Of a stretch of 64,000 bases of DNA, positions 22,588-64,000 are shown piece after piece. The DNA is from an uncultured bacterium (GTDB taxonomy: Bacteria; Bipolaricaulota; Bipolaricaulia; RBG-16-55-9; DRJF01): positions 382 through 64,381 of the forward strand of contig CAJXGD010000007.1 of assembly GCA_913053845.1 (NCBI GenBank), in the 5' to 3' direction. The translations under genes were made by a program, and so were the position numbers. A model generated the notes under the pieces. The model was given only the letters and a program-made list of their open reading frames with translations, was not told the origin of the DNA and did not search any database. The stretch's first letter is position 1. Every line of letters starts with the position of its first letter.

Positions 22588-22590
22588 GAG

Positions 22591-23874: not shown

Positions 23875-23898
23875 GGGCGTATGGCCATACGCCCCTAC
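23871..23898. repeat. Perfect 28-nt palindrome, GTAGGGGC-family REP-like element
   Basis: GTAGGGGCGTATGGCCATACGCCCCTAC read directly. It contains the dehydrogenase stop codon (TAG 23872-23874) and ends 5 nt before the GT4 start. Confidence 0.6.
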
Positions 23899-23903
23899 CG
23901 GCG

Positions 23904-25735: not shown

Positions 25736-26414
25736 AACATTGCTGATCTACGGGGCCTCCGGCCACGCCAAGGTCATCATTGACATCGTCGAGCGGGCCG
25801 GGCGCTATCGCATCGTCGGCCTGCTGGACGACGATCCGCAGTTGCAAAGTGAAAAATTCTTCGGTTATCCTGTGCTGGGAGGGGGCGAGCGTTTGGCCGA
25901 GGAGAGCTACCCGGATCATCGGCTGGTCATTGCGGTGGGGGATAACTTTGCGCGCCGGGAGATCTGGCGCAGGGTCGAGGCGCTAAGAAATTTCCAGTAC
26001 GCGCTGGCGGTCCATCCTGCGGCCCAGATCGGCCGTGAGGTGCAGTTGGGGGAGGGCACGGTCGTGATGGCCAACGTGGCCATCAATCCCGGCACGCTCA
26101 TCGGTCGGCAGGTGATCATCAACACCGGCGCGACGGTTGATCACGACTGCCTGATTGGGGATTTTGCCCATATCTCGCCAGGGGTACATCTGGCGGGCAA
26201 CGTTCAGGTAGGCGAGCTGACCCATCTGGGCGTGGGAACGGCGGTCCTGCCGGGGGTGCATATTGGGGCCCGGTCGCTCATCGGGGCCGGAGCGGTGGTG
26301 ATCGGTGACATTCCGGATGGGGTTATTGCCGTCGGGGTGCCCGCGCGGGTGATCAAGCAACGAAGTCAGATTGGACCAGGAGGAGCAGATGACCCAAGTG
26401 ATCATTCCGGATAA
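25725..26414 (+). CDS. PglD/NeuD-family sugar N-acetyltransferase (left-handed beta-helix)
   Basis: Start MSDRTLLIYGASGHAKVIIDIVE at 25725, with a hexapeptide-repeat C-terminus (INPGTLIGRQVIINTGATVDHDCLIGDFAHISPGVHLAGNV). Confidence 0.8.
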   Translation: MSDRTLLIYGASGHAKVIIDIVERAGRYRIVGLLDDDPQLQSEKFFGYPVLGGGERLAEESYPDHRLVIAVGDNFARREIWRRVEALRNFQYALAVHPAAQIGREVQLGEGTVVMANVAINPGTLIGRQVIINTGATVDHDCLIGDFAHISPGVHLAGNVQVGELTHLGVGTAVLPGVHIGARSLIGAGAVVIGDIPDGVIAVGVPARVIKQRSQIGPGGADDPSDHSG

Positions 26415-26709
26415 ATTAAGTGAGATACTACAACAATTAGAAGGCAAGACACTGGATCAAAAGCTGGCTCAGTTGATCGAGCGTGACCTGGAGCATCGTT
26501 TGCGCTATTGCTCTAGGCGCATCGTAGATTTCGAGGTGAAATATGGCCTATTGTTCGAGGAATTTCGCGCCGCCTGGGAATTGGGTACCATCCCCGATCG
26601 TCATGCTCATGAGATAGAGCGAGACTACATGGAGTGGGAGAGCCTGGTAGATGAGCGCCAACTGTTGCTCACTAAGTTAAAACAACTCACCAACAGGTTG
26701 TTCTCTTAA
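26389..26709 (+). CDS. Small helical hypothetical protein embedded in the glycan operon
   Basis: ATG 26389 lies 5 nt after AGGAGG. The product (106 aa) is MTQVIIPDKLSEILQQLEGKTLDQKLAQLIERDLEHRLRYCSRRIVDFEVKYGLLFEEFRAAWELGTIPDRHAHEIERDYMEWESLVDERQLLLTKLKQLTNRLFS. G+C is 21/60 at 26401-26460. I recognise no family. Confidence 0.45.
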   Translation: MTQVIIPDKLSEILQQLEGKTLDQKLAQLIERDLEHRLRYCSRRIVDFEVKYGLLFEEFRAAWELGTIPDRHAHEIERDYMEWESLVDERQLLLTKLKQLTNRLFS

Positions 26710-26712
26710 CTT

Positions 26713-27831
26713 ATGCAAGACTTGATTATTCCCGCCTCTAGGCCGGATATCACCGAGGTCGAGCGCCAGGCGGTCCTCGAGGTGCTCGAGAGCCCCATTC
26801 TGAGCATGGGACCCAGGCTGGAGGCCTTCGAGCGTGCCCTGTCTGAATACGTTGGAGTGGCCCACGCGGTGGGCACCAACAGCGGCACCAGCGCCCTGCA
26901 CCTGATCGTGCGCGCCCTGGGCTTGGGAGCCGGCGACGAGGTGATCACCACCCCGTTCAGTTTCATCGCCTCGGCCAACTGTCTGCTCTTCGAAGGCGCG
27001 CGGCCGGTCTTCGTGGATATTGATCCGGAGTCGCTCAATCTCGATGTGGACCGGATCGAAACGGCCATTACTGAACGAACACGCGCGATTTTGGCCGTAG
27101 ACGTCTTCGGCCATCCGGCCGACTGGGACGAGCTAGAGCGGCTAGCTAGCTTGTATGGCCTGCTGCTGATCGAAGATTCGGCCGAGGCGCTGGGCGCCCG
27201 CTATCACGGTCGGCCGGCCGGCAGCTTCGGCCAGGCGGCTATATTCGGTTTTTATCCTAATAAGCAGCTCACCACCGGTGAGGGCGGCGTGGTCTTGACC
27301 GATAATGCTGAGCTGGCCGAGCTCTGCCGCTCGCTGCGCAATCAGGGACGCGCCCCCGACGACAGTTGGCTGACCCACCTGCGCCTGGGCTATAACTATC
27401 GCCTCGATGAGCTCTCGGCCGCCCTGGGCTTGGCCCAGCTCTCGCGGCTGGATGAGATGCTCAGCCGCCGCGAGCAGGTGGCCCAGCTCTATGCCGAAAA
27501 ACTGGCCAACATCGAAGAAGTCACTATTTTGCGGACCAAACCCGGGGTCTGGCGCAGCTGGTTCGTTTATATTATTCAATTGGCTCCCGGGATCAATCGG
27601 ACCAAGCTGATGAGCTATCTGGCCCAGTGCGGCGTACAAACGCGGCCCTATTTCAGCCCCATTCACTTGCAGCCCTTCTATCGCGAGCGCTTCGGATATC
27701 ATGAAGGCGACTATCCTGTCACTGAAAATATCAGTCGCCGCACGCTGGCTCTGCCGTTTTATAACCGGCTTTCCGAGCCGGAGATTGACTATGTGGTGAG
27801 GAGCTTGAAGGAGGGGATCGCAGGAGGATGA
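26713..27831 (+). CDS. DegT/DnrJ/EryC1-family sugar aminotransferase (PglE-like)
   Basis: 372 aa. Blocks GTNSGTSALHL, FYPNKQLTTGEGG (PLP Lys region) and NYRLDELSAALGLAQL. Confidence 0.85.
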   Translation: MQDLIIPASRPDITEVERQAVLEVLESPILSMGPRLEAFERALSEYVGVAHAVGTNSGTSALHLIVRALGLGAGDEVITTPFSFIASANCLLFEGARPVFVDIDPESLNLDVDRIETAITERTRAILAVDVFGHPADWDELERLASLYGLLLIEDSAEALGARYHGRPAGSFGQAAIFGFYPNKQLTTGEGGVVLTDNAELAELCRSLRNQGRAPDDSWLTHLRLGYNYRLDELSAALGLAQLSRLDEMLSRREQVAQLYAEKLANIEEVTILRTKPGVWRSWFVYIIQLAPGINRTKLMSYLAQCGVQTRPYFSPIHLQPFYRERFGYHEGDYPVTENISRRTLALPFYNRLSEPEIDYVVRSLKEGIAGG

Positions 27832-29825
27832 GCCGTCTGATAGGGCGCAATCGCCTGACCCGCGCGCTCTTCTTCGGAGCGCTCGATCTGGTCTGGATCG
27901 GCCTGGCGATCTACATCGCCTTCCTGCTGCGCTTCGACGGCCGGATCTCGCCAAACTACGCCGCGCGGCTCTGGATTTACTGGGGGATCGCCCTGGCGCT
28001 CAAGCTGCCAATCTTCGCCCTACAAGGTCTCTATCGCATGAGCTGGGCTTATGTGAGCTTGGAAGACCTGTTGGCCGTGCTGCGCGCCGCTACGTTGAGC
28101 TCGCTACTCCTGGGCATGGTCTTGTTCTTCTTAGGGCGCGAAAGCTCGCTCTTCAGCGATTTTCCCCGCTCGGTGCTGATTATAGACTATTTGCTCACGA
28201 TAAGCTTCATCGGTGGCTTTCGCCTCTGGAAGCGAATTTATCTTCGCCTGCGCTCGCGAGGAGTGCGGCCGGGGCGGCCAGCACTGATCGTGGGCGCCGG
28301 GGACGCCGGCGAGCAGTTGGCCCGCAACATGCTGAGCGAGCGCGCCTCCGGCTGGAGTCCGATCGGCTTCGTGGACGACGATCCGGCCAAGCGAGGGCTC
28401 TCGCTGCACGGCCTGCCGGTGTTGGGCACGCGGGCCGACCTGCCACAGATTATCAAGGCCTATAATATCGAGCTGGTGCTGGTGGCCTTGCCCGCGGTGC
28501 GCGGCCGGGTGATCCGCCAGATCGTCACCCTGGCCCGTGAGGCCGGAGTGCCCAAAATCGAGATCCTGCCCGGCATCCATGAGCTGCTCAGCGGGCAGGT
28601 CAGCTTGTCGCAAGTGCGTGAGGTGCAACCGGAAGATCTGCTGGGACGCGATCCGGTGCAGATTGATAGCCGGGAGATCTCGTGTTATCTCAAGGGCAAA
28701 CGGGTGCTGGTCACCGGGGCAGCCGGCTCGATCGGCCGCGAGCTCTCTCGGCAGGTGCTCAAGTTCGCTCCGGCCCGGCTGGCCCTGCTCGATCAGGATG
28801 AGACAGCGCTCTTTCTCTTGGGCAATGAGTTGAGCCGGGTCTTTCCCAGTGATCAGACCGCAATCATGCCGGTTTTGGCCGATGTGCGCGATGCGGCCAA
28901 GATCTCCCAGGTGTTCAGCGCCGAACGGCCCGAGATCATCTTCCATGCCGCGGCCTACAAGCACGTGCCGGTAATGGAAGCCCAGCCGGAGGAGGCGATT
29001 AAGACCAACGTGCGCGGCACCCGCCTGCTGGCCCAGGCGGCCTTGGAATCGGGCGCCGAAAAGTTCCTGCTCATTTCGACCGACAAGGCGGTCCGTCCCA
29101 GCTCGGTGATGGGTGCCTCCAAGCGGGTGGCCGAGCTGATCATGCAGGCGCTGGCCACCCAGAGAGCGACCAGCTTTTTCGCCGTGCGCTTCGGCAACGT
29201 GCTAGGTAGCCGAGGCAGCGTGATACCGATATTGCAGGAGCAGATCAAGCGTCGCGGGCCGGTGACCATCACCCATCCGGGAATGAAGCGCTATATGATG
29301 GCCATCTCCGAGGCAGTCGCGTTGGTATTGCAGGCCGGCGCCCTGGGCCAGGGGGGCGAGGTCTTCGTGCTGGACATGGGCCGGCCGGTTAAAATACTCG
29401 ATCTGGCCCGCGAGCTGATTCGCTTCTCGGGCTATGAGCCGGAGGTGGATATTCCCATAGTCTTCAGCGGCGCGCGCCCCGGCGAGAAGCTCTTTGAAGA
29501 CCTGCTGAGCGCCGAAGAGGGCACCGAGGCCACCCGGCATGAGAAAATCTACGTGACCCGCTTGAGCACCTCCTGGGAGCCGAGGGCGCTCTTTGAGGCC
29601 AGCGGGCAACTGGAGCAGGCAGCCGAGCGCGGCGACCGCGAGGCGGTGCTGGCCGGCTTGCGGGAGCTGGTGCCGACCTATCGGCCGCAGGTGATCGACG
29701 CGCCGGTCTCCGTAGGGGCACCCCTGGTGGGTGCCCAGGATGCAGGCGCCCCAGATAGGGCAGGCACAAGGCCCGCCCCTACATCATCAGGCGAGATCCA
29801 TCCTAAAAATGGGGGTGGCAGATGA
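27828..29825 (+). CDS. Membrane-anchored UDP-GlcNAc 4,6-dehydratase (PglF/CapD, Polysacc_synt_2)
   Basis: N-terminal TM helices, VLVTGAAGSIGRELSRQV, AAYKHVPVME and STDKAVRPSSVMGASKRVAE. The last 40 or so codons run through a REP-like palindromic element. Confidence 0.85.
   Translation: MSRLIGRNRLTRALFFGALDLVWIGLAIYIAFLLRFDGRISPNYAARLWIYWGIALALKLPIFALQGLYRMSWAYVSLEDLLAVLRAATLSSLLLGMVLFFLGRESSLFSDFPRSVLIIDYLLTISFIGGFRLWKRIYLRLRSRGVRPGRPALIVGAGDAGEQLARNMLSERASGWSPIGFVDDDPAKRGLSLHGLPVLGTRADLPQIIKAYNIELVLVALPAVRGRVIRQIVTLAREAGVPKIEILPGIHELLSGQVSLSQVREVQPEDLLGRDPVQIDSREISCYLKGKRVLVTGAAGSIGRELSRQVLKFAPARLALLDQDETALFLLGNELSRVFPSDQTAIMPVLADVRDAAKISQVFSAERPEIIFHAAAYKHVPVMEAQPEEAIKTNVRGTRLLAQAALESGAEKFLLISTDKAVRPSSVMGASKRVAELIMQALATQRATSFFAVRFGNVLGSRGSVIPILQEQIKRRGPVTITHPGMKRYMMAISEAVALVLQAGALGQGGEVFVLDMGRPVKILDLARELIRFSGYEPEVDIPIVFSGARPGEKLFEDLLSAEEGTEATRHEKIYVTRLSTSWEPRALFEASGQLEQAAERGDREAVLAGLRELVPTYRPQVIDAPVSVGAPLVGAQDAGAPDRAGTRPAPTSSGEIHPKNGGGR
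29712..29782. repeat. Composite GTAGGGGC...GCCCCTAC palindromic element inside the 3' end of the PglF-like ORF
   Basis: The outer arms are GTAGGGGC (29712-29719) and GCCCCTAC (29775-29782). There is an inner hairpin GGGCACCC-ctggt-GGGTGCCC. The element translates as VGAPLVGAQDAGAPDRAGTRPAPT. Confidence 0.45.
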
Positions 29826-31057
29826 CCGTTTACGATGTCATCGTGGTGGGCGCCGGGCCGGCCGGCTCGGTGGCGGCCAGGACGGCCGCCCAGGAGGGAG
29901 CGCATGTGCTGCTCCTGGAAGAGCATCTCCAGGTCGGTCATCCGGTCCGCTGCACCGGCCTGCTCAGCGTGCGCGGCGTCGAGCAAGCGGGGGTCTCTAG
30001 GGATGTGCTCCTGCGGCCCATCCGCGGGGCGTTCATCTACGGTCCCGAGGGGGAGCGGCTGACGGTCGGAGGCCCCGCGCCCAAGGGCTACGTGATGGAC
30101 CGCGGTCGCTTTGACCAGGATCTGGTTGAACAAGCCAGCCACGCCGGCGTCCAAGTCGTCATCGGGGCGCGGGCCTGCGCGCTCACTCGCAGCACTGCAA
30201 GTTCTGAACTAGTCTTCAGGCGAGACGGCCGAGAAGAGCGGGTCCGAGGACGGGTGATCATCGGCGCCGACGGGCCGCAGAGCCGGGTGGCCCATTGGGC
30301 CGGCCTGCCGCGCCCCCGGCGGATGATCGCCGCACTGCAGGTGACGATCGCCCACGAGCCGGAGCGTCCCGACTTCGTGGAAGTCTTCGTCGGACGCCAG
30401 ATAGCCCCTGACTTCTTCGCCTGGGCGGTGCCAGCCGGGCCGGGAGAGGCGCGGGTGGGGCTGGGCACCAGCCAAGGGCCGCAGATACGGGCTCTACTGG
30501 ACAAGCTGCTCGAGCGTTGGGGCGCGCCGCGGCGGCTCAGCGAAGAGTCAGGCGTTATCCCCTTAGGGCTGCCGGAGCGGACTGTCACAGATGGGATCAT
30601 GCTCGTTGGCGATGCCGCCGGCCAGGCCAAGCCGACCTCCGGGGGTGGCATCTATACCGGCACGAGCTGCGCCCGCATCGCCGGCGAGGTGGCCGCGCGG
30701 GCGGCCCTCTCCGGCAGGAGCGATCGGCGGACGCTCTGGGAGTATGAGCGCCGCTGGCGAGCCCTGCTGGAGCGCGAGTTGCGCTTCGGCTTTCAGGCTC
30801 ATCAGGCGCTCAGGCGCCTAGGCGATGGCGATCTCTCGCGGCTCTTCCGCGCGGCGGATCACCCGCAACTGCTGGCCCTACTGGGTGAGCACGGCGACAT
30901 TGACTACACCAGCCGAGCACTGCGGGCGATGCTGCGGCGACCCAGGCTCTGGGGACGAGTGCTGCGGGCCATCCCCTTCGATCTTCAAGCACTACTGGAG
31001 CTCTTGGGGGGAGCGCCCGAGGACATTGCCCAATACGCTAAAGGAGAGTCTCAGTAG
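29822..31057 (+). CDS. Geranylgeranyl-reductase-family FAD-dependent oxidoreductase
   Basis: YDVIVVGAGPAGSVAARTAAQEG...VRCTGLLS, IIGADGPQSRVA and VGDAAGQAKPTSGGGIYTG. There is an ATGA start/stop overlap with the upstream gene and a 2-nt gap to the downstream gene. Confidence 0.75.
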   Translation: MTVYDVIVVGAGPAGSVAARTAAQEGAHVLLLEEHLQVGHPVRCTGLLSVRGVEQAGVSRDVLLRPIRGAFIYGPEGERLTVGGPAPKGYVMDRGRFDQDLVEQASHAGVQVVIGARACALTRSTASSELVFRRDGREERVRGRVIIGADGPQSRVAHWAGLPRPRRMIAALQVTIAHEPERPDFVEVFVGRQIAPDFFAWAVPAGPGEARVGLGTSQGPQIRALLDKLLERWGAPRRLSEESGVIPLGLPERTVTDGIMLVGDAAGQAKPTSGGGIYTGTSCARIAGEVAARAALSGRSDRRTLWEYERRWRALLERELRFGFQAHQALRRLGDGDLSRLFRAADHPQLLALLGEHGDIDYTSRALRAMLRRPRLWGRVLRAIPFDLQALLELLGGAPEDIAQYAKGESQ

Positions 31058-31059
31058 AT

Positions 31060-35146
<4,087 letters not shown>

Positions 35147-35865: not shown

Positions 35866-36522
35866 ATGGGCAAGGAATGGATCTATCGGCTGATCACTCG
35901 GCTGTCGGGGGGGATCGCCCGGCTGCTCTTCGGCCTTAAAATTCACGGACGGGCTAATATTCCCTCTGGCCACGGCTTCCTGCTGATCGCTCGTCATCGC
36001 AGCTATTGGGATATCCCGCTGCTGGCCGTGGCGCTGAAGCCAGAGCGGCGGATCCATTTTGTAGCCCGCCGGACGCTCCAGCGCAACCTGCTGCTGCGTC
36101 CCTTGATCAAGAACTTGACTATTACAATTGACCGCGAGCATTTTCGCCTGCAAGACTATCGCCGGATCAGCCAGGCTCTGGAGGCGGACAAGATCGTGGG
36201 CATCTTTCCCGAGGGCACGATGACGAACACCGAGACGATTCGCAGCGGGGTGGTGCGCTTCGCCGAGCGTAGCGGACGGCCGATACTGCCGATCAGGATT
36301 GCGGCCCGGGGGCCGTATCCGCCGCACTATCCCTTCGGCCTGCCCCGGATAGATATCTGGATCGGGCAGAGCTTCCGGCTCGCGGAGCTGGAGTCGGAGC
36401 TAAACCGGACGTTGTCGCGTCAGGAGCGCTATGCCCAGTTGGGCCAGGCACTGATGCAGCGGATTGACCGGGCCGGCCTCCCGGCGGAGCGGCCGCTGAC
36501 CGCCGGTCAGGAGCTGCGATGA
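35866..36522 (+). CDS. plsC: 1-acyl-sn-glycerol-3-phosphate acyltransferase
   Basis: HX4D block ARHRSYWD and a FPEGT block. Confidence 0.8.
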   Translation: MGKEWIYRLITRLSGGIARLLFGLKIHGRANIPSGHGFLLIARHRSYWDIPLLAVALKPERRIHFVARRTLQRNLLLRPLIKNLTITIDREHFRLQDYRRISQALEADKIVGIFPEGTMTNTETIRSGVVRFAERSGRPILPIRIAARGPYPPHYPFGLPRIDIWIGQSFRLAELESELNRTLSRQERYAQLGQALMQRIDRAGLPAERPLTAGQELR

Positions 36523-39117: not shown

Positions 39118-39696
39118 GTGTTGGCTTTCCTAGCCGGGCTGTTCTTCTATCTCCTGGGGACGATTCCGTTCAGCTATTTGATCGTCCGCTGGCGCCAGGG
39201 GGGCGACATCCGCCGACTGGGCAGTGGTAACTCCGGCGCGAGCAATGTAGTCCGCCAGTCAGGCCTGATCTACGGGATCGCCGCTTTTGCACTGGATTTT
39301 CTCAAGGGAGCTCTCTCTGCTTATCTGGCCCGGCGTTGGGGATTGCCCCTCTGGTTGGCTGGCCTGGCCGTGGTCGGCCACGACTGGTCTCCCTGGCTGC
39401 GCTTCCGGGGAGGCAAGGGAGTGGCGACCAGCTTGGGCCTGATCTTGGTGCTCTCCTGGCCGACGCTGCTGATCACCGTGGGCATCTGGCTACTGACCGT
39501 GATGCTCAGCGGCTGGGCCTCGCTGGCCTCGCTGCTGGCGCTGGGGCTCTCCCCCTTGGCACTGCTGCTGCGCGAGAGCTCATTGAGCAATCTGCTCTTT
39601 TTAGTCGGCCTGGCGCTGCTGGCCGCCGGGCGCCATCATAAGAATATCGCCCGCCTGATCCGTGGAAAGGAGCGCTCGCTCTTCAAGAAGACGTAG
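39118..39696 (+). CDS. plsY: Glycerol-3-phosphate acyltransferase PlsY
   Basis: GSGNSGASNVVR and GGKGVATSLG; polytopic, 192 aa. Confidence 0.85.
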   Translation: MLAFLAGLFFYLLGTIPFSYLIVRWRQGGDIRRLGSGNSGASNVVRQSGLIYGIAAFALDFLKGALSAYLARRWGLPLWLAGLAVVGHDWSPWLRFRGGKGVATSLGLILVLSWPTLLITVGIWLLTVMLSGWASLASLLALGLSPLALLLRESSLSNLLFLVGLALLAAGRHHKNIARLIRGKERSLFKKT

Positions 39697-42884: not shown

Positions 42885-43670
42885 TCAACCCGGCGACCTG
42901 GTTTGCCGGGTCTGCCGAGACAGCAGTTGCCCCAGTCGGCCGAAAGCATAGACCGAGCCGTCATCGCCGATCGGGTAAAGCTCAAAGTCCGGCAAGGTCG
43001 CTTCGTCAAGCAGCGGCGAGAGGCAGCCCTCGCGCCCCAGATCGCTGCCCTGCACCAGCGGATTAACAGCGGGCTGCACCAGCAGCTTGACCCCCCGATA
43101 GCTCCCCTGGAGAAAGCATTTGTAAAGCTCCACCCGACCGGTGACTGGATCGCGCAAGCCGATCGCCGGATGCTCGTGGCCGATGATTACCAGCTCAAGG
43201 TCGGCCGAAAGCTCATCAGGCTGCCGATCACCGTGGATGAAGAGCAGCGGTCCGGCGCGATAGGCCGCACAGAGCTCAATGCGAGCGCTCGCCTGGGCCA
43301 GCGGGGCCAGCTCACCGTCATGGTTGCCTTGGACCAGCACCAGCCGCTCGCTCAACTCGGCCAGCTCGCTCAGGAAACCGAGCAGCTCCTGGAGCTCCCG
43401 CCCCGAGCAGGGGCCGAAACTGTGGCGCAGATCGCCGTTGATGATCAGGCAGCGCAGGGGGTGAGCCGTCGAGATGGCCAACTGAGCGACGATCCGGTTC
43501 AGGCGGACGCGCACCGCCTGGAGCTGCCGCTGGGGCAGGAGCAGCCCCTCACGGCCGAGCGCCCGCTCGAAGCCCAGGTGCAGGTCGGCGATGGCCAGCG
43601 TCCGGCAGCGCTGCCAATAGCAGGCCAGGTCCACCAGTTGTAGCTCCTCATCCAGGAGTAGGCTTTTCAT
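42885..43670 (-). CDS. Calcineurin-like metallophosphoesterase (PdeM / archaeal SbcD-related type)
   Basis: Start MKSLLLDEELQLVDL at 43670. Motifs are LAIADLHLG, INGDLRHSF, VQGNHD and GHEHP. Confidence 0.7.
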   Translation of the reverse strand: MKSLLLDEELQLVDLACYWQRCRTLAIADLHLGFERALGREGLLLPQRQLQAVRVRLNRIVAQLAISTAHPLRCLIINGDLRHSFGPCSGRELQELLGFLSELAELSERLVLVQGNHDGELAPLAQASARIELCAAYRAGPLLFIHGDRQPDELSADLELVIIGHEHPAIGLRDPVTGRVELYKCFLQGSYRGVKLLVQPAVNPLVQGSDLGREGCLSPLLDEATLPDFELYPIGDDGSVYAFGRLGQLLSRQTRQTRSPG

Positions 43671-43804
43671 CCGATTATCCGAGCGAATTATAGCTCTATG
43701 CTCGGGCGTCGGCGATGTGAAGTTGCCCCTGGAGTCCTTTTCGCTTATGATCGTTGGCTGTGGGGCTATCAGGGTCATAACTTGTGGGAGGCGAAGTCGA
43801 GCCA

Positions 43805-44992
43805 ATGGATCTGTTCAGCAAATGCGAGAATTATCACGAGGTCAAGCAGGCCAAGGAGCAGGGCTATTACCCCTATTTCTTGCCGGTCTGCTCCGCTCAA
43901 GACAGTGAAGTGATCATCGAGGGTCGGCGGGTCCTGATGCTGGGCTCCAATAATTATTTGGGCCTGACTACCCATCCTCAGGTGAAACGTGCCGCAATTC
44001 AGGCCGTCGAGCAGTACGGCACTTCCAGTTGTGGCTCGCGTTTTCTCAACGGCACCATGGAGTTGCATCTGGAGTTGGAGGAGCGGCTGGCCCACTTCCT
44101 CAAGCGCGAGGCGGCGCTCTGCTTCTCCACCGGTTTCCAGACCAATCTGGGGACTATCTCAGCCCTGGTGGGCAAGAACGATGTAGTATTCTCCGATAAG
44201 TGGGATCACGCCTCGATCATTGACGGCATCCGCCTTTCCCTGGGCAAGACCAAGCGCTTTCGACACAACGACGTGGAGGACCTACGTCGTGCCCTGCGCG
44301 ACTGTCCTGATGAGCTGGGCAAATTGATCGTAGTCGACGGCCTGTTCAGCATGGAAGGGGACATCTGTCCCTTGGCGGAGATCACCCAGGCCGCCCGGGA
44401 GTACGGTGCGCGGGTCATGGTGGATGACGCCCACGCTCTGGGTGTCTTGGGCGCTCATGGTCGCGGCACAGCCGAGCATTTCGGCCTGGAAGACCAGGTT
44501 GACTTGATCATGGGGACCTTCAGCAAATCATTTGCCTCGCTGGGTGGTGTGATCGCCGGCCCGGCCTCGGTGATCAGCTATATCCAGCACCATGCCCGCT
44601 CGCTGATCTTCAGCGCCTCCATGCCGCCCTCGGCGGTGGCCACCGTGCTGGCCGCGCTGAAGGTAATAAAGAACGAGCCGGAAAGGCACGAGCGGCTGTG
44701 GCACAACGCCCACAAGATGCAGGCCGGCCTGCAAGCGATGGGCTACGATACCGGAGCGTCCCAGACACCGGTCATCCCACTGGTGATCGGCGATATGTTC
44801 CTGGCGCTGACCATGTGGCGCGAACTGCTGGAGAACGGCGTCTACGTCAATGTGATCTTGCCCCCAGCGGTGCCCCAGGGTCGGGCGCTGCTGCGCACCA
44901 GCTATATGGCCACCCATACCGATGAACAACTCGACTTCGCCCTGGAGATCTTCCATAAGATGGGCCACAAGCACGGCGTCCTGCCCGGTTGA
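43805..44992 (+). CDS. Alpha-oxoamine synthase, serine palmitoyltransferase-like
   Basis: Start MDLFSKCENYH, 13 nt after GGGAGG. Blocks are LGSNNYLGL, RFRHNDVEDL, the PLP-Lys block GTFSKSFASLGG, IFSASMPPSAVAT and GVYVNVILPPAVPQGRALLRTSYMATHT. Confidence 0.8.
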   Translation: MDLFSKCENYHEVKQAKEQGYYPYFLPVCSAQDSEVIIEGRRVLMLGSNNYLGLTTHPQVKRAAIQAVEQYGTSSCGSRFLNGTMELHLELEERLAHFLKREAALCFSTGFQTNLGTISALVGKNDVVFSDKWDHASIIDGIRLSLGKTKRFRHNDVEDLRRALRDCPDELGKLIVVDGLFSMEGDICPLAEITQAAREYGARVMVDDAHALGVLGAHGRGTAEHFGLEDQVDLIMGTFSKSFASLGGVIAGPASVISYIQHHARSLIFSASMPPSAVATVLAALKVIKNEPERHERLWHNAHKMQAGLQAMGYDTGASQTPVIPLVIGDMFLALTMWRELLENGVYVNVILPPAVPQGRALLRTSYMATHTDEQLDFALEIFHKMGHKHGVLPG

Positions 44993-45003
44993 GCGGCCTG
45001 CGC

Positions 45004-46158
45004 TTAGAGCTTTTTCTCGTAGATGCGGTAGGTCTTGTCCAGCCGAGAGCCGACCATCTTACAGGCACGAATGATCAGCTCATTGTCTTCTAATAGCCAG
45101 GAGAACTCGCAACTGCGAAAGCGGTGCAGTGCCAAGGTCGCCTCGATCAGTTGGGAGTAGATCAGGGCGTCCACCCCGCGCAGCCGATAGCCGCCCTTGA
45201 TGCCCAGGGTGATGAAGCGCAGGCCGTCCACCCGCCGCATCCCTCGCAGCAGTCGGAAGATTCCCCAGGGGAAGAGCCTGCCCCGCAAGGGCAACAACGC
45301 CTGATAGGCGTCGGGGATCACCAGCCCAAAGCCCACCGGTTCTGCGTCCAGCTCAGCGATCAAGGCTAGCTCAGGAATGGCGATCTGTTTGAGCTCTTTG
45401 CCCTGGGCGAGAAACTCGGCCTCGCTCATGGGGACGAAGCCCCAGTTGCGCTCCCAGGCGGCGTTGTAGATCTGGCGCAGCCGGGTGACCTCGGTGGAGA
45501 AGTCGTGCAGGTTGATCTGGCGCACCTTGAAGCCGCGCCGCTCGGCCCGCCGGGCCAGTGCGCGCAGCCGCACCACCAGCTTTTCATTCTTGGCCAGGAA
45601 ATTTTCGTCAATCTGAAGGCGATAAGCCAGCAGGTCTTTGATTTTAGTGAAGCCGGCAGATTCAAGTAATTCCGGATAATAAGAGGGATTATAGGTCATC
45701 ATCACACAAGGGGGCCGGGAGAAGCCCTCGACGAGCAGGCCACACTCCCCATTGGTGTTGAAGTTAAAGGGTCCGCGCAGGGCCTTCATGTCCGCGGCGC
45801 GCCCCCAGTCGGCGGCTGCCCCTAGCAGGGCCTGACCGACCACCTGATCATCAAGAGTCTCAAAGAAGCCGAAGAATGCCGTCTGCTCATCCCAAAATTC
45901 ATTGTGGTCATGGTCAATCTGCGCCGAGATGCGTCCCACCGGTTGACCGGCTTGATAGGCCAAGAAGAGCTGCACCTCAGCATGCTGATAGAAGGGATTG
46001 CGCTTCGGATCGAAGCGCTCTCGCTCTTGGCTGAGCAGCGGTGCGACCCAATTTTGATCGTGGCGATAAAGCTGCCAAGGCAGGCGGATGAATTGCCGCT
46101 GCTGCTCGGTGGTCCGGACGGCCCTGATCTCAAGCGGCGAGTTGTTCAACGAGCTCAT
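45004..46158 (-). CDS. Large GNAT-fold N-acyltransferase-like protein
   Basis: Start MSSLNNSPLEIRAV at 46158; 384 aa. The N-terminal half reads RLPWQLYRHDQNWVAPLL...FFGFFE. The C-terminal half reads YNAAWERNWGFVPMSEAEF...FITLGIKGGYRLRGVDALIY. The fold assignment is from motif memory only. Confidence 0.55.
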   Translation of the reverse strand: MSSLNNSPLEIRAVRTTEQQRQFIRLPWQLYRHDQNWVAPLLSQERERFDPKRNPFYQHAEVQLFLAYQAGQPVGRISAQIDHDHNEFWDEQTAFFGFFETLDDQVVGQALLGAAADWGRAADMKALRGPFNFNTNGECGLLVEGFSRPPCVMMTYNPSYYPELLESAGFTKIKDLLAYRLQIDENFLAKNEKLVVRLRALARRAERRGFKVRQINLHDFSTEVTRLRQIYNAAWERNWGFVPMSEAEFLAQGKELKQIAIPELALIAELDAEPVGFGLVIPDAYQALLPLRGRLFPWGIFRLLRGMRRVDGLRFITLGIKGGYRLRGVDALIYSQLIEATLALHRFRSCEFSWLLEDNELIIRACKMVGSRLDKTYRIYEKKL

Positions 46159-46282
46159 GGGCTCTTTTATACCCGAAAAGCGGGGGGGCGGGCAAGGGCC
46201 GAGGCCAGCGGTGCAAGATCTGAGTTGCAGCATCGGCGAGCTGACGCTATCTTGATTGCGCCTAGAGGAGGTGGTGCTCATC

Positions 46283-47266
46283 ATGCGTGTTCTGGTTACC
46301 GGCGCGACCGGCCTAGTCGGCAGTCATTTGGCCCAACAGTTGGTGGAAGCCGGCGAAGCGGTGCGCGCCCTGGTGCGACCTACCAGCGATGTGCGTCGGC
46401 TGCAGGCACTGGGCATCGAGCTGGCTCCAGGCGATCTAAACGATGAGAAAAGTCTGCGCTCGGCCTGCCGGGGCGTACAAATCGTCTATCACTGCGCCGC
46501 CCGCCTGCCCTTGGGAGGCCGGCGGGAGCGGTTCTATCGGACCAACGTGCAAGCTACTGCCGCGCTGCTGCGCGCCGCTCAAGCGGCCGAAGTGGAGCGC
46601 TTCGTTTATACCAGCACAGTGGACGTCTACGGCTACGCCGATCAGCGAGGGACCGACGAAGAGACGCCTTTTCGGGCCGACGGTTATTACTCCGAGACCA
46701 AGATCGCCGCAGAGAAGCTCCTCTGGCAGGCCTATCGCAGCGAGCATTTTCCCGTGGCTATAATTCGTCCCTGTCTGATCTATGGCCCCTATGATCGCAA
46801 TCTGTGGCCCGCGCTGCTGCGGATGCTGGCCGGGCATCACGTGCCGCTGATCGGCGGCGGCCGCACCCTGGCCGACATAGTTTACGCCGGCGACGTGGCC
46901 CAGGCGCTCCGACTGGCCGGCAGGCGCGCCGAGGCCCTGGGCCAAGCCTACAACGTGACCGATGGGGCGGAGCGCACCGTGCGCCAGCTACTGAGCGCTT
47001 TCGCTCAGGCTCTGCACCTGGAACCCCGTTTTTTTCGCTTGCCCTATGCCCCGGCTTATGGTGCAGCTCAACTGCTCGCCGGGATAAGCCGCACGCTGGG
47101 CTTCAACCTGCCTGCCGATCTGCAGCCCGATATCATCAAGGCACTGGGCCACGATCGTCACTTCAACATCGGCAAAGCCCGCGCTCAATTGGGCTATCGT
47201 CCCCAAGTCGATCTGGAGACGGGCCTGGCGCAAACGCTCGCCTGGTATAATCAACGCCCAGTCTAG
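46283..47266 (+). CDS. NAD-dependent epimerase/dehydratase-family reductase (extended SDR)
   Basis: Start MRVLVTGATGLVGSHL at 46283, with catalytic YSETK. It is divergent from the GNAT-like gene across 124 bp. Confidence 0.75.
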   Translation: MRVLVTGATGLVGSHLAQQLVEAGEAVRALVRPTSDVRRLQALGIELAPGDLNDEKSLRSACRGVQIVYHCAARLPLGGRRERFYRTNVQATAALLRAAQAAEVERFVYTSTVDVYGYADQRGTDEETPFRADGYYSETKIAAEKLLWQAYRSEHFPVAIIRPCLIYGPYDRNLWPALLRMLAGHHVPLIGGGRTLADIVYAGDVAQALRLAGRRAEALGQAYNVTDGAERTVRQLLSAFAQALHLEPRFFRLPYAPAYGAAQLLAGISRTLGFNLPADLQPDIIKALGHDRHFNIGKARAQLGYRPQVDLETGLAQTLAWYNQRPV

Positions 47267-47290
47267 TAGGGGCGTATGGCTCTTGCGCCC
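47266..47290. repeat. Degenerate GTAGGGGC-family element
   Basis: GTAGGGGCGTATGGC (47266-47280) is identical to 23871-23885. The second arm is degraded (tcttGCGCCC). Confidence 0.4.
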
Positions 47291-49088
47291 AGAGGAAGGG
47301 AGGGGGAACTTGTCGCCTGTTATCACGCTCTTGATCATAATCGCCGCCGCACTGGTGCTCTTCGTCAGCGAGCGTTTTCCCATTCCCTTAGTGGCTTTGT
47401 CCATCTCGGTGGTGCTGATGCTCACCGGTCTGGTCACGCCGGCCGAGGGCATCTCCGGCTTCAGCAGCCCGGCGACCATCACGGTGCTGGCCATGTTTGT
47501 GCTCAGCGCCGGCTTGCAGAAGACCGGCATCGTCCGCTCGCTAGGCGAGCTGATCATCCGCTTTGCCGGCGGCAATCAGTACAAGGGGCTGGCCGCGATC
47601 ATGCTGGTCGCCGGCGGGCTCTCGGCCTTCATCAACAATACCGCCGTGGTGGTGGTGCTCTTGCCCACGGTGATCATCTTGGCCCGGCGCACGGCGCTCT
47701 CTCCGGCCAAATTGCTCATTCCTCTCTCGTTCAGCAGTATGCTGGGCGGCCTGGGCACCCTGATCGGCACCTCGACCAATATCTTGGCCTCCGACGTCGC
47801 GAACAAGCTGGGCTACGGGCCGATTTCCATGTTCGAGTTCACCAAGCTGGGCGTGATAGTTTTCCTGGTCGGCGGAGTCTATCTCTTGCTCTTCAGTGGA
47901 CGCCTCTTGCCGGAGCGCCGTGGGCCACGAGAGGAGAGGACCGAGAGCTACCATCTGCGGGATTATCTCACCGAGCTGGTGATCCTGCCCGACTCACCCT
48001 TGGTTGGGTCCACGGTGGCCCAGTGTCGGCTGCGGCAGCTCTCCGATGCTGACGTGCTGGAGATTATCCGCGCTGGGAGCAAGCTGGAACAGCCGTTCGC
48101 TGACGAAAGGCTGCAAGCGGGCGATGTGCTGATGGTTCGAGGCAAGGTTCAGACGCTGCTGCGGGTGCGCCGCAGTGCCGGGATCAAGATCCTGCCGGAG
48201 GTGCAACTACGCGACTCCGATCTGGTGGCCGACCGGATGGGCCTGCTGGAGGTGCTCATCTCGCCGACCTCGCATCTGATCGGGCGTACCCTGGAGGAGA
48301 TCCGCTTTCGCAACCGCTACAACGCCACGGTGCTGGCCATCCAGCGCCACGGCGAGGCGATTCGCGAGCAACTGAGCAAGAACCGGTTGGCCGTAGGTGA
48401 TGCGCTCCTGATCCAAGGCCCAAGCGCCGTGCTGGAGATGATCCAGGCCAGCCCCAACTTCATCATCGTCGGTGAGGTGCCCCATGAGACGCTCCGCCGG
48501 GAGAAGACACCCATCGCGCTGGGGATTATCATCGGAGTGGTCCTGCTGGCTGCCCTGAACGTCCTGCCCATCCTGGTGACCGCCTTGGCCGGAGCGGTGC
48601 TGATGGTGCTGACCGGCTGTCTGGAGATGAGCGAGTTTTACGAGGCGGTGCGCTGGGATGTCATCTTTCTACTAGCCGGCATTATTCCTTTGGGGCTGGC
48701 GTTGGAGAATACCGGGGCGGCCGCGTCGATCGCTCAGTACGCCGTGGGACTCTCCGGTGTGCTGCCCCCGTTGCTGATTTTGGGGCTCTTCTACGTGCTC
48801 TCCATGCTCCTGACGGAGATGATCTCCAACAACGCCACCGTCGTCCTGCTCATCCCGATTGCCACCGCCGCGGCGACCGATCTGGGGCTGAACCCCCAAG
48901 CCTTCATCATGACGGTGATGTTTGCCGCCTCGATGAGCTTTCTCACCCCCATCGGCTATCAGGCGAACACGCTGGTCTACAGCGCGGGCGGCTACAAGTT
49001 TACCGATTTCTTCAAGGTAGGAGCGCCGATCAGCCTGATCTTGATCCCGATCACGGTCTATCTTATCTCGGTTTTCTGGCCGCTCTAG
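47283..49088 (+). CDS. SLC13/DASS-type anion permease with two internal TrkA-C (RCK_C) domains
   Basis: 601 aa. There are N- and C-terminal polytopic halves, and a central soluble region with two repeats (DYLTELVILPDSPLVGSTVAQ... and LLEVLISPTSHLIGRTLEE...). The start codon is uncertain. Confidence 0.8.
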   Translation: MRPEEGRGNLSPVITLLIIIAAALVLFVSERFPIPLVALSISVVLMLTGLVTPAEGISGFSSPATITVLAMFVLSAGLQKTGIVRSLGELIIRFAGGNQYKGLAAIMLVAGGLSAFINNTAVVVVLLPTVIILARRTALSPAKLLIPLSFSSMLGGLGTLIGTSTNILASDVANKLGYGPISMFEFTKLGVIVFLVGGVYLLLFSGRLLPERRGPREERTESYHLRDYLTELVILPDSPLVGSTVAQCRLRQLSDADVLEIIRAGSKLEQPFADERLQAGDVLMVRGKVQTLLRVRRSAGIKILPEVQLRDSDLVADRMGLLEVLISPTSHLIGRTLEEIRFRNRYNATVLAIQRHGEAIREQLSKNRLAVGDALLIQGPSAVLEMIQASPNFIIVGEVPHETLRREKTPIALGIIIGVVLLAALNVLPILVTALAGAVLMVLTGCLEMSEFYEAVRWDVIFLLAGIIPLGLALENTGAAASIAQYAVGLSGVLPPLLILGLFYVLSMLLTEMISNNATVVLLIPIATAAATDLGLNPQAFIMTVMFAASMSFLTPIGYQANTLVYSAGGYKFTDFFKVGAPISLILIPITVYLISVFWPL

Positions 49089-61629: not shown

Positions 61630-61702
61630 TGGAGACGAGCGGATTCGAACCGCCGACCTCTGCGTTGCGAACGCAGCGCTCTCCCAACTGAGCTACGTCC
61701 CC
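61630..61702 (-). tRNA. tRNA-Ala (anticodon CGC)
   Basis: Folded by hand: GGGGACG/CGTCTCC acceptor with the G3:U70 identity pair, CTGCG-TTCGCAA-CGCAG anticodon arm, GGCGG-TTCGAAT-CCGCT T arm, discriminator A. Confidence 0.85.
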
Positions 61703-62022
61703 AATGGAGCGCCTGATTATAACCGGGCCGCTCGCCGCAAGCAAAGGGATAGCCGGTAGACTTGGGCACACCAACTTCAGGGTTTTGACTTCTAGACTCA
61801 ATGGATGTATTATCGGGTTGTACTGAGTTGAGTCAAGCGCAATAGGTGGAGGAATTATCCATCTAGCACAGTGAAGATAGGGCTTAGATGGGAATGCGTC
61901 TATATAACATGCAGAATGGTTGTTTAGGTGGAAAGATTCCCGTCTAAGATAGCAGAGCGAAGGTTGGACGGAAGGGAGTCCACCTGGTTGTAGCAAAGCA
62001 ATAAATAGCAAGGAGGAAATGT

Positions 62023-63096
62023 ATGGGTTTTAACGAGGAAATAACAGCTATTGCAGATAAAATCCCTCAGATGATTGACAGGCTTGAAACCGAAGAAGCA
62101 ACAAAAAATGCTTTAATCATGCCGTTCATTCAAGTACTTGGATATGACGTCTTTAATCCACGAGAGGTCGTCCCAGAGTTTGTAGCCGATGTTGGCACCA
62201 AAAAAGGTGAAAAGGTTGATTACGCGATAATGCAAAATGGGGAGATAATAATATTAATTGAGTGCAAACAGGCTAATTCCAATCTTAATGATGCAAATAT
62301 TAGTCAGCTTTACAGGTACTTCACTGTAACGAAAGCAAGAATCGCTATTTTAACAAATGGTGTAAATTATAGATTTTTCTCTGACCTTGAAGAACCAAAC
62401 AAGATGGATCAGCGACCATTTCTTGAGCTTGATATGAATAATATCAGAGAGAATTTGCTTGATGAGATTAAAAAATTAGCAAAAGAGAAATTTGACATCG
62501 ATAGAATGTTAAGCATAGCACATGAATTAAAATATACGTCAGGAATTAAGAAAATCATGACATCGCAGTTTGATAGTCCTGATGAAGATTTTGTAAAATA
62601 TTTCTTTAATGCCGCAAACCCAGGTGCGAGATTCGTCGCCTCAGCAAGAGAGCAATTTGTAGATTATGTAAAGAAAGCTTTCCAACAATTTATCAATGAG
62701 AGCGTTAGTGATCGTCTTCGATCTGCACTGCGAAAAGAAGACGAAAAAAGCGAACAAAAAGAAGTTGATAATGAGGTTGATATGAAGGGAAACCTTAGGA
62801 AAGTTGGCATCGTAACAACGAGTGAAGAGATTGAAGGATATTATATAGTAAGGGCAATAATGAGTAAGGAAATCTCTCCAAACAGAATCGTTTATCGTGA
62901 CACTAAATCGTATTTTGGTATTCTTTTAGATGATAATAATCGCAAACCTATTTGTAGGCTACATTTCAATACGCTACAAAAATACATTGGCATCTTCGAC
63001 AATGACAAAACCGAGACAAGATATCTTCTTAACGAAATAATCGATATCTACAAATTCTCTGATGAACTTATCAAAGTTGCTGATTTTTATCAATAA
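62023..63096 (+). CDS. Solitary PD-(D/E)xK nuclease-fold protein with a type I restriction HsdR N-terminal-like domain
   Basis: 357 aa. Blocks are EEATKNALIMPFIQVLGYDVFNPREVVPEF, the catalytic-type motif KVDYAI...IILIECK, and YRYFTVTKARIAILTNGVNYRFF. G+C is 21/60 at 62221-62280. SD AAGGAGGA lies upstream. Confidence 0.7.
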   Translation: MGFNEEITAIADKIPQMIDRLETEEATKNALIMPFIQVLGYDVFNPREVVPEFVADVGTKKGEKVDYAIMQNGEIIILIECKQANSNLNDANISQLYRYFTVTKARIAILTNGVNYRFFSDLEEPNKMDQRPFLELDMNNIRENLLDEIKKLAKEKFDIDRMLSIAHELKYTSGIKKIMTSQFDSPDEDFVKYFFNAANPGARFVASAREQFVDYVKKAFQQFINESVSDRLRSALRKEDEKSEQKEVDNEVDMKGNLRKVGIVTTSEEIEGYYIVRAIMSKEISPNRIVYRDTKSYFGILLDDNNRKPICRLHFNTLQKYIGIFDNDKTETRYLLNEIIDIYKFSDELIKVADFYQ

Positions 63097-63318
63097 ACAC
63101 AATTTGCCTAACGATGATATCAAGCCGACAGCGTTGGCAGTGGACGTAAGCTATTCACGAGGGGTATTGGCCTAACAAGGCGCTAGCACCTACCACGCTA
63201 CTGCGCACGCTGAAATCAAGGTTGATTGGACGTTTGCAAGTTGGCTCTTTGTCACAGTACACCCTGAAAGGGTCACCCACCAACTAAGATTAAACCATTG
63301 CAATAGGGGTGATCTTCC

Positions 63319-63633
63319 GTGCCTCACGAGATTCATCAAGTTGTTGCATTCGAGAAGGTAGCACCCTATATGTTGTCTGTTACCTTCGAGGACGACAACT
63401 CTCAGGTCATCGATTTCCGTCCCGTGCTGAGGGGCGAACTCTACGGCCCACTGCGAGATAATTCCTTCTTTGACCAAGTACGAGTGGACCCGGAAGTCCA
63501 CACACTCGTGTGGCCAAATGGTGCGGACTTCGATCCGGCGATGCTTTACCATTGGTCTGAGCTTGGTTCCCAGCTTGAAGCTCTTGCAGAGAGCTGGCCC
63601 ACTACAGTGGAGCAGGCCACCAACACGCTGTAA
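63319..63633 (+). CDS. DUF2442-family small protein (orphan; no DUF4160 partner seen)
   Basis: 104 aa with a GTG start. Sequence VVAFEKVAPYMLSVTFEDDNSQVIDFRPVLRGELYGPLRDNSFFDQVRVDPEVHTLVWPNGADFDP. Confidence 0.65.
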   Translation: MPHEIHQVVAFEKVAPYMLSVTFEDDNSQVIDFRPVLRGELYGPLRDNSFFDQVRVDPEVHTLVWPNGADFDPAMLYHWSELGSQLEALAESWPTTVEQATNTL

Positions 63634-63733
63634 GAGTTGCACGGCAGGTGAGCTAGGGCGTTAGGTCCCAAGAGCCTCTGAATTCTTGACGGGCGGATAG
63701 GTATGACGTATAGTCATACTAAGAGGTGAGGCA

Positions 63734-63976
63734 ATGTCAAAGTCCAAGGTAGCCATATCACTAGATGAGACAACGCTAGGCCAGTTAGATCGACTTGTTG
63801 AGGAGTCCATTTTCCCAAGTCGGAGTCGCGCCATTGAAATCGCCATCCAGGAGAAACTCGCTCGTCTGAATAGAGGCCGGTTAGCGCGAGAGTGCGCGAA
63901 GTTGGACCCCAAGTTGGAGAAGTCACTGGCTGAAGAGAGTCTCTTTGAGAATTTGTCGGAATGGCCCGAATACTAA
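63734..63976 (+). CDS. Ribbon-helix-helix (CopG/MazE-type) antitoxin
   Basis: MSKSKVAISLDETTLGQLDRLVEESIFPSRSRAIEIAIQEKL (beta-strand then two helices), with an acidic C-terminal tail. It overlaps the next ORF by 16 nt. Confidence 0.7.
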   Translation: MSKSKVAISLDETTLGQLDRLVEESIFPSRSRAIEIAIQEKLARLNRGRLARECAKLDPKLEKSLAEESLFENLSEWPEY

Positions 63977-64000
63977 GAGGTGACATCCGTTGGGCTGACC
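63961..64000 (+). CDS. MazF/PemK-family toxin, first 13 codons only (cut by the window edge)
   Basis: My translation from ATG 63961 is MARILRGDIRWAD, which matches the RGD(I/V)(W/Y).(A/V)D start typical of PemK/MazF. Genetic context supports the call. Confidence 0.45.
   Translation, partial: MARILRGDIRWAD

Follow-up and report, generated by a model that had tools for sequence, protein, structure and literature searches.

A putative ceramide backbone gene set, encoding homologues of Spt, bCerS, and CerR, in a Bipolaricaulota-related bacterium

The three enzymes of the ceramide pathway in Caulobacter crescentus, Spt (CCNA_01220), bCerS (CCNA_01212), and CerR (CCNA_01222), are said to have been defined as a set in 2021–2022, reportedly by Olea-Ozuna et al. 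in 2021 and Stankeviciute et al. in 2022. In this pathway, Spt gives 3-ketosphinganine, bCerS gives oxo-ceramide, and reduction follows (PMC11087976); another proposal has reduction ahead of N-acylation (PMC11324152). The 3-ketosphinganine reductase of Bacteroides thetaiotaomicron, BT_0972, is a classical short-chain dehydrogenase/reductase (SDR) (PMC9278070). Spt-like genes, often with bCerS and CerR genes alongside, occur in metagenome-assembled genomes (MAGs) of 38 phyla, including 218 Chloroflexota and 138 Planctomycetota MAGs, which brings the total to 40 phyla, and the bCerS and CerR genes are unlinked to spt in sphingolipid-producing Bacteroidota (PMC11334938). We analyzed a stretch of 64,000 nucleotides (the window; contig CAJXGD010000007.1 of assembly GCA_913053845.1) from an uncultured bacterium placed in the Bipolaricaulota by GTDB, in which three adjacent genes encode an Spt-like synthase, a homologue of bCerS, and an extended SDR. 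This trio most probably represents the bacterial ceramide (dihydroceramide) backbone pathway as defined in Caulobacter. The homology of the three proteins, their predicted folds, their catalytic motifs, and the conserved linkage of their genes are established by the comparisons given below.

All three open reading frames are read from the sequence as an earlier note, made from the letters of the window, had described them, including the spacings of 11 and 124 bp. The gene of the Spt-like alpha-oxoamine synthase (43805–44992, + strand; 395 residues) contains DLIMGTFSKSFASLGG / GTFSKSFASLGG and is convergent with the gene of the bCerS homologue, a tandem-GNAT N-acyltransferase (45004–46158, − strand; 384 residues), across 11 bp (44993–45003). 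The gene of the extended SDR of the CerR type, a putative 3-keto(ceramide/sphinganine) reductase (46283–47266, + strand; 327 residues), contains VLVTGATGLVGSHL and YSETK and diverges from the bCerS homologue gene across 124 bp (46159–46282). The trio was found with identical products on three public contigs, including the NCBI MAG GCA_011052375.1. The gene of the 384-residue protein is called identically on all three, and the sole point of disagreement among gene callers is the start of the synthase, which is placed either at the ATG at 43805 or at a GTG at 43784, the latter giving 402 residues.

The 384-residue protein is the member of the trio that sequence libraries do not recognize: it gave no match to Pfam, including Pfam-A (2025), to NCBIfam, or to PDB sequences. 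The bCerS of Caulobacter likewise has no match in NCBIfam r20 and no Pfam match on record. Because the Caulobacter enzyme is itself unrecognized, the lack of matches reflects a gap in the libraries, not novelty. Homologues of about 370–390 residues number in the thousands; a profile search of 1.84 billion representatives gave at least 3,358 clusters at 50% identity (E ≤ 1e-30), and the family members carry generic GNAT or hypothetical annotations. No homologue was found in a scan of viral contigs.

The Caulobacter bcerS gene (ccna_01212) was recovered from metagenome contigs with the cloning primers EK1199 and EK1313 as probes (PMC11087976). The forward primer matched four Caulobacter contigs; an exact match to the reverse primer is present in two of these, and the spt primer in one. 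The genes thus obtained (L091:5605–6759 and L092:18453–19607) encode a product of 384 residues. From the reverse primer, Caulobacter bCerS ends in VYEKAL, which fits YR[IV]YEKxL, a C-terminal motif that does not vary in the family, and the window protein ends in YRIYEKKL. The window protein and Caulobacter bCerS, equal in length, share 35% identity over 386 columns with 13 gaps (E = 1e-75), and Caulobacter bCerS aligns with the family profile at an hhalign probability of 100 (E = 2.6e-88, 368 columns). Judged at the sequence level, the 384-residue protein is a full-length homologue of bCerS, the relationship that the earlier note had proposed for its GNAT-like protein.

The AlphaFold2 model of this protein, built with a 30-sequence alignment, has a pLDDT of 93.1 and a pTM of 0.90 and consists of two GNAT domains. 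Its best Foldseek matches in the PDB (E about 1e-13, only 12–14% identity) are tandem GNATs, namely the glucosamine N-acetyltransferase 5kf1, MAB_4324 (7q3a), the clavulanate-pathway protein 2wpw, and MshD. The protein is confidently predicted from the model to be a soluble acyltransferase of the GNAT superfamily with a tandem GNAT fold. An acyl-CoA motif of the R-x-x-G-x-D/A type (RLRGVDA) is found in the C-terminal GNAT half, which suggests that this half would bind acyl-CoA and that the N-terminal half would help to shape the acceptor site, as in other tandem GNATs.

The synthase belongs to Pfam Aminotran_1_2 (E = 2.6e-64) and is an alpha-oxoamine synthase. Its closest characterized and closest solved relative is the Spt of Sphingobacterium multivorum (3a2b, 8guh; 441 bits, E = 2.5e-131), a soluble enzyme of the acyl-CoA-using type, with which it aligns at 53% identity over 381 residues without a gap. 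The motifs GTFSKS, with the lysine that carries pyridoxal 5'-phosphate, DHASIIDG, and VDDAH align with the same motifs of 3a2b and 2x8u, and the catalytic Lys, His, and Asp residues of the S. multivorum enzyme are all kept. The other solved structures score lower against the synthase: Thermus BioF/Kbl (323 bits), Sphingomonas Spt (313–322 bits), Kbl (266–280 bits, E = 1e-82), cysteate acyltransferase (CFAT; 246–259 bits, with 28eh at 259 and 7u7h at 246), BioF (244 bits; Escherichia coli BioF, 242 bits), ALAS (about 200–215 bits), and CqsA (137 bits). In identity, the synthase reaches 56% with the Myxococcus synthase, 44% with Caulobacter Spt, and 42% with Sphingomonas wittichii Spt, compared with 44% for Thermus BioF/Kbl and 35–36% for E. 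coli Kbl and BioF.

Among the curated NCBIfam models, the best for the synthase is the Bacteroidota-type Spt model NF047600 (544 bits, cut-off 640), followed by TIGR01825 (437 bits, cut-off 535), the beta-type Spt model NF047599 (433 bits, cut-off 500), BioF (TIGR00858; 415 bits, cut-off 426), Kbl (NF005394; 404 bits, cut-off 460), and the alpha-type Spt model NF047603 (351 bits, cut-off 670). Caulobacter Spt, used as a positive control for the Spt models, passes NF047599. All ten bCerS-adjacent synthases that were tested, including those from Myxococcus and a Bacteroidota MAG, fall under the cut-off of NF047600, indicating that the NCBIfam Spt models are clade-narrow.

In a neighbor-joining (NJ) tree of 64 sequences, the synthase lies inside a clade of S. 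multivorum Spt and bCerS-adjacent synthases, with the alphaproteobacterial Spt enzymes as the neighboring group and Kbl and BioF outside. The split of BioF/Kbl from all others has a bootstrap value of 147/200. Resolution inside the Spt assemblage is poor, and the separation of Bacteroidota-like from alphaproteobacterial Spt has a value of 31/200. By sequence comparison, the synthase groups with characterized Spt and not with BioF, Kbl, ALAS, or CqsA. The assignment made in the earlier note as Spt rather than BioF or Kbl therefore holds; the blocks that it described as common to the synthase and Sphingomonas Spt can be seen when the synthase is aligned with S. wittichii Spt (2x8u), but the Bacteroidota (Sphingobacterium) type, represented by 3a2b, is the nearer of the two.

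The SDR is a member of Pfam Epimerase (E = 1.6e-44) / 3Beta_HSD and has the TGxxGxxG Rossmann motif as VTGATGLVGSHL (GATGLVGSHL) and the catalytic YxxxK motif as YSETK. Of the NCBIfam models, HpnA (178 bits) and OleD (164 bits) fit it best, against cut-offs of 368–580 bits. OleD, a 2-alkyl-3-oxoalkanoate reductase, and HpnA have the same extended-SDR architecture as the window SDR, and OleD reduces a 3-oxo group on a long-chain lipid, a reaction chemically analogous to the reduction of 3-keto-ceramide; the window SDR differs in scoring far below these cut-offs and in having no ole or hopanoid genes nearby. The SDRs of the clusters in Myxococcus and other phyla rank HpnA, OleD, and SdmB first, as the window SDR does, and Caulobacter CerR also ranks HpnA and OleD first, with lower scores.

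The Caulobacter cluster was reached through a Caulobacter Spt of 94% identity and has the order LptC2, two genes of unknown function, AasR, SDR, AcpR, Spt, cpg genes, a Metallophos gene, LptF2/G2, and bCerS, which agrees with the published map of CC_1152–CC_1168 (PMC11324152). The cerR primers gave no match within three mismatches in the fetched Caulobacter relative. By eye, however, both ends of the SDR gene correspond to these primers, barring an indel and substitutions. From this fit and from the aasR–cerR–acpR–spt position, we take the SDR between aasR and acpR to be the cerR orthologue.

The window SDR and Caulobacter CerR share only 25% identity in pairwise comparison (47 bits). A profile was built from 38 SDRs located within 3 kb of a bCerS homologue at loci that also have a synthase, with the lineage of the window and Caulobacter left out. 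This cluster-SDR profile gives 240 bits with the window SDR, 250 bits with the Ca. Fraserbacteria orthologue, 256 bits with the orthologue at locus L004, and 220 bits with Caulobacter CerR, whereas other extended SDRs reach at most 146 bits; the second epimerase of the window (21433–22587) scores 135 bits. The profile comparison, together with synteny, suggests that the SDR, itself very divergent from Caulobacter CerR, belongs to a divergent CerR-type family. The link to CerR proposed in the earlier note draws on the profile and on gene order, and it is weak in the direct pairwise comparison. In the window SDR, no evident signal peptide precedes the Rossmann motif, with which the protein begins; the same holds for Caulobacter CerR, a protein that is periplasmic in Caulobacter.

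The linkage of the three genes was compared in a genome scan with one genome per GTDB species, which gave more than 600 matches to bCerS homologues. The best 80 of these loci, which were analyzed, carry more than 20 phylum-level labels and include Myxococcus dinghuensis, with an Spt–bCerS–SDR operon, and Bacteriovorax. A synthase gene lies within 500 bp of the bCerS homologue at 49 of the 80 loci, and an SDR gene within 5 kb at 39. When only the 47 loci with at least 4 kb of sequence on both flanks are counted, the synthase is found at 32, the SDR at 26, and both partners at 25. The co-conservation that the earlier note had called for is therefore observed, and in many phyla. Natural fusions of 777–784 residues, with an Spt-like synthase at the N terminus and a bCerS domain at the C terminus, are also found (P0365, P0381, and P0507). 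The synthase halves of P0381 and P0507 (777 and 780 residues) are 53–57% identical to the window Spt. The P0365 fusion has two matched bCerS stretches, and P0024, with 663 residues, is a partial fusion.

Distant homologues of the 384-residue protein are also found in operons with the synthase and SDR genes. L006 has an SDR–Spt–bCerS–PAP2 operon; at L007, Spt–bCerS–SDR is followed by MlaDEF and a fatty-acid hydroxylase; and L075 has Spt–bCerS–SDR with PAP2, hydroxylase, and desaturase genes. The PAP2, fatty-acid hydroxylase, desaturase, and MlaDEF neighbors could plausibly serve in head-group addition, tailoring, and trafficking; no such gene lies near the trio in the window. L075 (JBLHVN010000003) is labeled as Sulfitobacter sp. 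and was tried as an alphaproteobacterial anchor. Its Spt is Bacteroidota-like (NF047600, 488 bits) and gave no alpha-type match at E ≤ 1e-90, so it was rejected for that use. The mismatch between label and Spt could come from horizontal transfer or from a binning or label problem.

A bCerS homologue without an Spt-like gene within about 10 kb is found at 13 of the 47 loci with full flanks (L026, L035, L036, L042, L043, L055, L068–L071, L080, L085, and L086). The labels among them include Anaerolineae/Chloroflexota, Aminicenantes, Ignavibacteriales, Chlorobiota, Gemmatimonadetes, Planctomycetota, Sumerlaeota, and Firestonebacteria. At these loci, either the genes are unlinked or the bCerS family has other acyl acceptors.

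The same three enzyme families are present in Caulobacter, where the genes are about 8 kb apart instead of being adjacent as in the window. Unlike Caulobacter, the window has neither AcpR nor AasR, as no homologue of either was found in it by phmmer (E ≤ 1e-3), which agrees with the statement in the earlier note that acyl carrier protein (ACP) and acyl-ACP synthetase genes are absent; LptF2/G2, ceramide kinase, and CDP-alcohol transferase genes are also missing from the vicinity. The trio is thereby without a dedicated ACP or acyl-ACP synthetase, as in clusters of the Bacteroidota/Myxococcus type, and an AasR-like gene occurs at just two of the 80 genome loci, L065 and L072. The same gene content as in the window, with a Bacteroidota-like Spt subtype and an HpnA/OleD-like SDR profile, is found in M. 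dinghuensis (L051; Spt 56% and bCerS 44% identical to the window proteins) and in many MAG phyla. The Myxococcus-type clusters are co-directional operons, whereas the window genes, convergent and divergent, form three transcription units.

L065 (11140–15796; Acidobacteriota chromosome OY761556) should be noted separately. The bCerS homologue there lies beside a more BioF-like synthase (BioF 342 bits, Spt 323 bits), and the locus also encodes a cluster-type SDR and an acyl-ACP synthetase resembling the AasR of Caulobacter (350 bits). It may be an ACP-dependent variant outside the Alphaproteobacteria.

The host is related to Ca. Fraserbacteria. Among named organisms, Ca. Fraserbacteria RBG_16_55_9 (NCBI phylum Ca. 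Fraseribacteriota) has the closest synthase (72–73% identical), and the closest named bCerS homologue among the best 80 loci (59% identical) is from a Ca. Bipolaricaulota MAG. At the nearer relative L004/L005, Spt and bCerS are convergent as in the window; its Spt, bCerS, and SDR are 79%, 66%, and 68% identical to the window proteins, and the SDR is displaced by about 5 kb through an insertion that includes a toxin–antitoxin pair. Ca. Fraserbacteria (MFGX01000016, L094), the nearest relative with a name, shares the RNase G–FolK–phosphoesterase–Spt neighborhood with the window (SDR 44%, RNase G 68%, and phosphoesterase 47% identical). Its order is SDR–Spt, with the SDR directly upstream of Spt, and the position that bCerS takes in the window is occupied by a classical SDR of the adh_short family (L094:6891–7652, − strand; 253 residues), convergent to Spt. 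This adh_short protein could be an alternative reductase.

For the substrates, the order of the steps, the cofactor, and the product, we infer the following scheme. Condensation of L-serine and a long-chain acyl thioester by Spt would yield 3-ketosphinganine. As the trio has no linked gene for a dedicated ACP or acyl-ACP synthetase, acyl-CoA is the probable thioester. The tandem-GNAT bCerS homologue would N-acylate the amine of 3-ketosphinganine with a second acyl-CoA to give 3-oxo-ceramide, and dihydroceramide would then result from reduction of the 3-keto group by the extended SDR, with NAD(P)H as the reductant. An Arg residue after the second β-strand of the SDR (ALVRPTS) hints at NADPH. 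The bCerS and SDR steps may run in the opposite order, a point that is disputed in the literature.

Some observations weigh against assigning the trio to the ceramide backbone pathway. The synthase falls below the curated Spt cut-off (544 against 640 bits); the best curated models for the SDR are HpnA and OleD, and its pairwise similarity to Caulobacter CerR is low; the three genes do not form one operon in the window; and the SDR–Spt pair of Ca. Fraserbacteria has no bCerS gene within 7 kb. In addition, the amino acid substrate of an alpha-oxoamine synthase is not readable from its sequence, which leads to a related explanation, that the same enzymes build on another long-chain base, with alanine (1-deoxyceramide), glycine, or cysteate (sulfonolipid/capnine-type) in place of serine, and make a non-canonical N-acylated amino-alcohol lipid. 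The sub-threshold Spt score leaves room for such a choice, which the sequence does not predict, and 1-deoxyceramides, lipids that are abundant in anoxic waters, are reported as products of these same enzymes with alanine (PMC11334938). The solved cysteate-C-fatty-acyltransferases, however, score far lower against the synthase than 3a2b does (28eh and 7u7h, at 259 and 246 bits, against 441 bits), and the synthase groups with the Spt of S. multivorum, a serine enzyme. We regard a non-serine base as rather unlikely.

Another explanation retains the joint action of Spt and bCerS but gives the adjacent SDR an unrelated role as an HpnA-like enzyme or a sugar-nucleotide epimerase/dehydratase, the reduction being carried out elsewhere, for example by a classical SDR of the BT_0972/Tsc10 type. 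The divergence of the SDR from CerR and its top curated score with HpnA (178 bits) would fit this, as would the use of a classical SDR as the 3-ketosphinganine reductase in B. thetaiotaomicron (PMC9278070) and the adh_short gene that adjoins Spt in Ca. Fraserbacteria. On the other hand, Caulobacter CerR itself ranks HpnA and OleD first, the window SDR outscores Caulobacter CerR with the cluster-SDR profile and, by a wide margin, unrelated extended SDRs such as that encoded at 21433–22587, and this type of SDR adjoins Spt and/or bCerS at 26 of the 47 loci and in the two closest relatives. An uninvolved SDR is accordingly considered unlikely. That the synthase is a housekeeping BioF/Kbl enzyme, or that it forms with its partner a pair like the mycobacterial BioF2, with no tie to sphingolipids, is very improbable and has been largely refuted. 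The label '8-amino-7-oxononanoate synthase' that JGI annotation gives to relatives of the synthase points to it, the BioF and Kbl models still score 404–415 bits, a faint match to PF13480 (BioF2-like acetyltransferase) occurs in some members of the bCerS family, and a GNAT-superfamily domain is likewise combined with an alpha-oxoamine synthase in mycobacterial BioF2, where Acetyltransf_6 forms the N-terminal part of the fusion. But the BioF and Kbl scores are below their own cut-offs and below the Spt score, the tree and the identities favor Spt, and no biotin or threonine-dehydrogenase genes are nearby. The BioF2 alternative offered in the earlier note fails in particular, as the window GNAT has no PF13480 match (E ≤ 0.01) and shows full-length homology to the bCerS that was defined by experiment, its gene is separate from and convergent with that of the synthase, and the Spt–bCerS fusions found here have the synthase at the N terminus.

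The layout of the trio in the window differs from that in most other phyla, where the genes form one operon: Spt and bCerS are convergent and bCerS and the SDR divergent, giving three separate transcription units. The 124-bp intergenic region (46159–46282) presumably holds the promoters of both the bCerS and SDR genes; this role is one that we infer, since a promoter consensus scan gave no convincing sigma-70-like site there. A weak terminator-like hairpin with a T-run (44989–45017, + strand) was found in the consensus scan and spans the 11-bp gap between Spt and bCerS. As the count of terminator-like sites in the region equals the chance expectation, the hairpin is only suggestive as a terminator; the promoter scan is likewise at chance level. 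The G+C content of the trio region is about 60–63%, as in the rest of the window. Housekeeping genes (ispH, rpsA, pyrF, rng, folK, and folB) lie upstream of the trio, indicating that it is embedded in the core genome and not in an island.

The genes on either side of the trio were compared with those of the relatives. A gene of a CitMHS/DASS-family anion transporter with two TrkA-C domains (47283–49088, + strand) begins within tens of base pairs of the SDR stop codon on the same strand and may be co-transcribed with the SDR gene; the pairing is not kept in L004/L005 and L094. On the other side, a calcineurin-like phosphoesterase gene (42885–43805, − strand) diverges from the Spt gene; its product is PdeM-like and gives 143 bits with TIGR00024 ('SbcD_rel_arch'). 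Its adjacency to Spt is retained in the two closest relatives, L004/L005 (phosphoesterase 62% identical) and Ca. Fraserbacteria L094 (47%). As a candidate member of the pathway it was rejected, having no meaningful similarity to the Metallophos protein of the Caulobacter sphingolipid cluster (E = 0.03). Its position may simply be lineage synteny with folB–folK–rng, and a role in the lipid pathway is unproven.

Other features of the window are more distant. A PlsC-type acyltransferase (35866–36522, + strand) and PlsY (39118–39696, + strand), both glycerolipid acyltransferases, are encoded among the housekeeping genes, 4–8 kb upstream of the trio. A surface-glycan gene cluster extends over 20237–33600 (+ strand) and encodes two Wzy_C/O-antigen-ligase-like membrane proteins (one with TPR repeats), an epimerase/dehydratase, a UDP-glucose dehydrogenase, a GT4 glycosyltransferase, a PglC-like sugar transferase, a PglD-like hexapeptide acetyltransferase, a DegT aminotransferase, and a PglF-like Polysacc_synt_2 dehydratase. 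The Pgl-like genes resemble the bacillosamine pathway. A geranylgeranyl-reductase-like flavoprotein is encoded within the same cluster (29822–31057). At the end of the window (61630–64000), the G+C content falls to 42.5% over the last 2 kb, compared with about 60–63% elsewhere. A tRNA gene (61630–61702, − strand) shortly precedes this fall, and the stretch, which encodes a protein with a type I restriction HSDR_N domain (62023–63096), looks like an island inserted at the tRNA gene.

Because such trios had already been reported in about 40 phyla by 2024, the trio is a further example of a known set, with a somewhat unusual gene arrangement. The earlier note had spoken of a lineage not known for sphingolipids. 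This stands insofar as no lipid data or sphingolipid report for the Fraserbacteria-related lineage was found in the literature, and it needs qualification in view of the many phyla in which Spt/bCerS/CerR sets are already described (PMC11334938). No literature linking Bipolaricaulota or Fraserbacteria to Spt was found, and the text of PMC11334938 does not show whether either was included. We consider it an even chance that the trio is the first indication of ceramide-type lipids in a Fraseribacteriota/Bipolaricaulota-related lineage, made by an ACP-independent set of the Bacteroidota/Myxococcus type that has been rearranged into separate transcription units.

The assignment of the trio to the ceramide backbone pathway corrects the labels given by annotation pipelines, namely '8-amino-7-oxononanoate synthase' for the synthase, 'GNAT family N-acetyltransferase' or 'hypothetical' for the bCerS homologue, and 'NAD-dependent epimerase' for the SDR. 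The picture of how bacterial ceramides are made is unchanged by it, and its value lies in annotation and in a wider list of producers, not in new biology. If the assignment is true, the Fraserbacteria-related lineage would be added to the likely bacterial sphingolipid producers and would be a new candidate source for environmental (dihydro)ceramide biomarkers.

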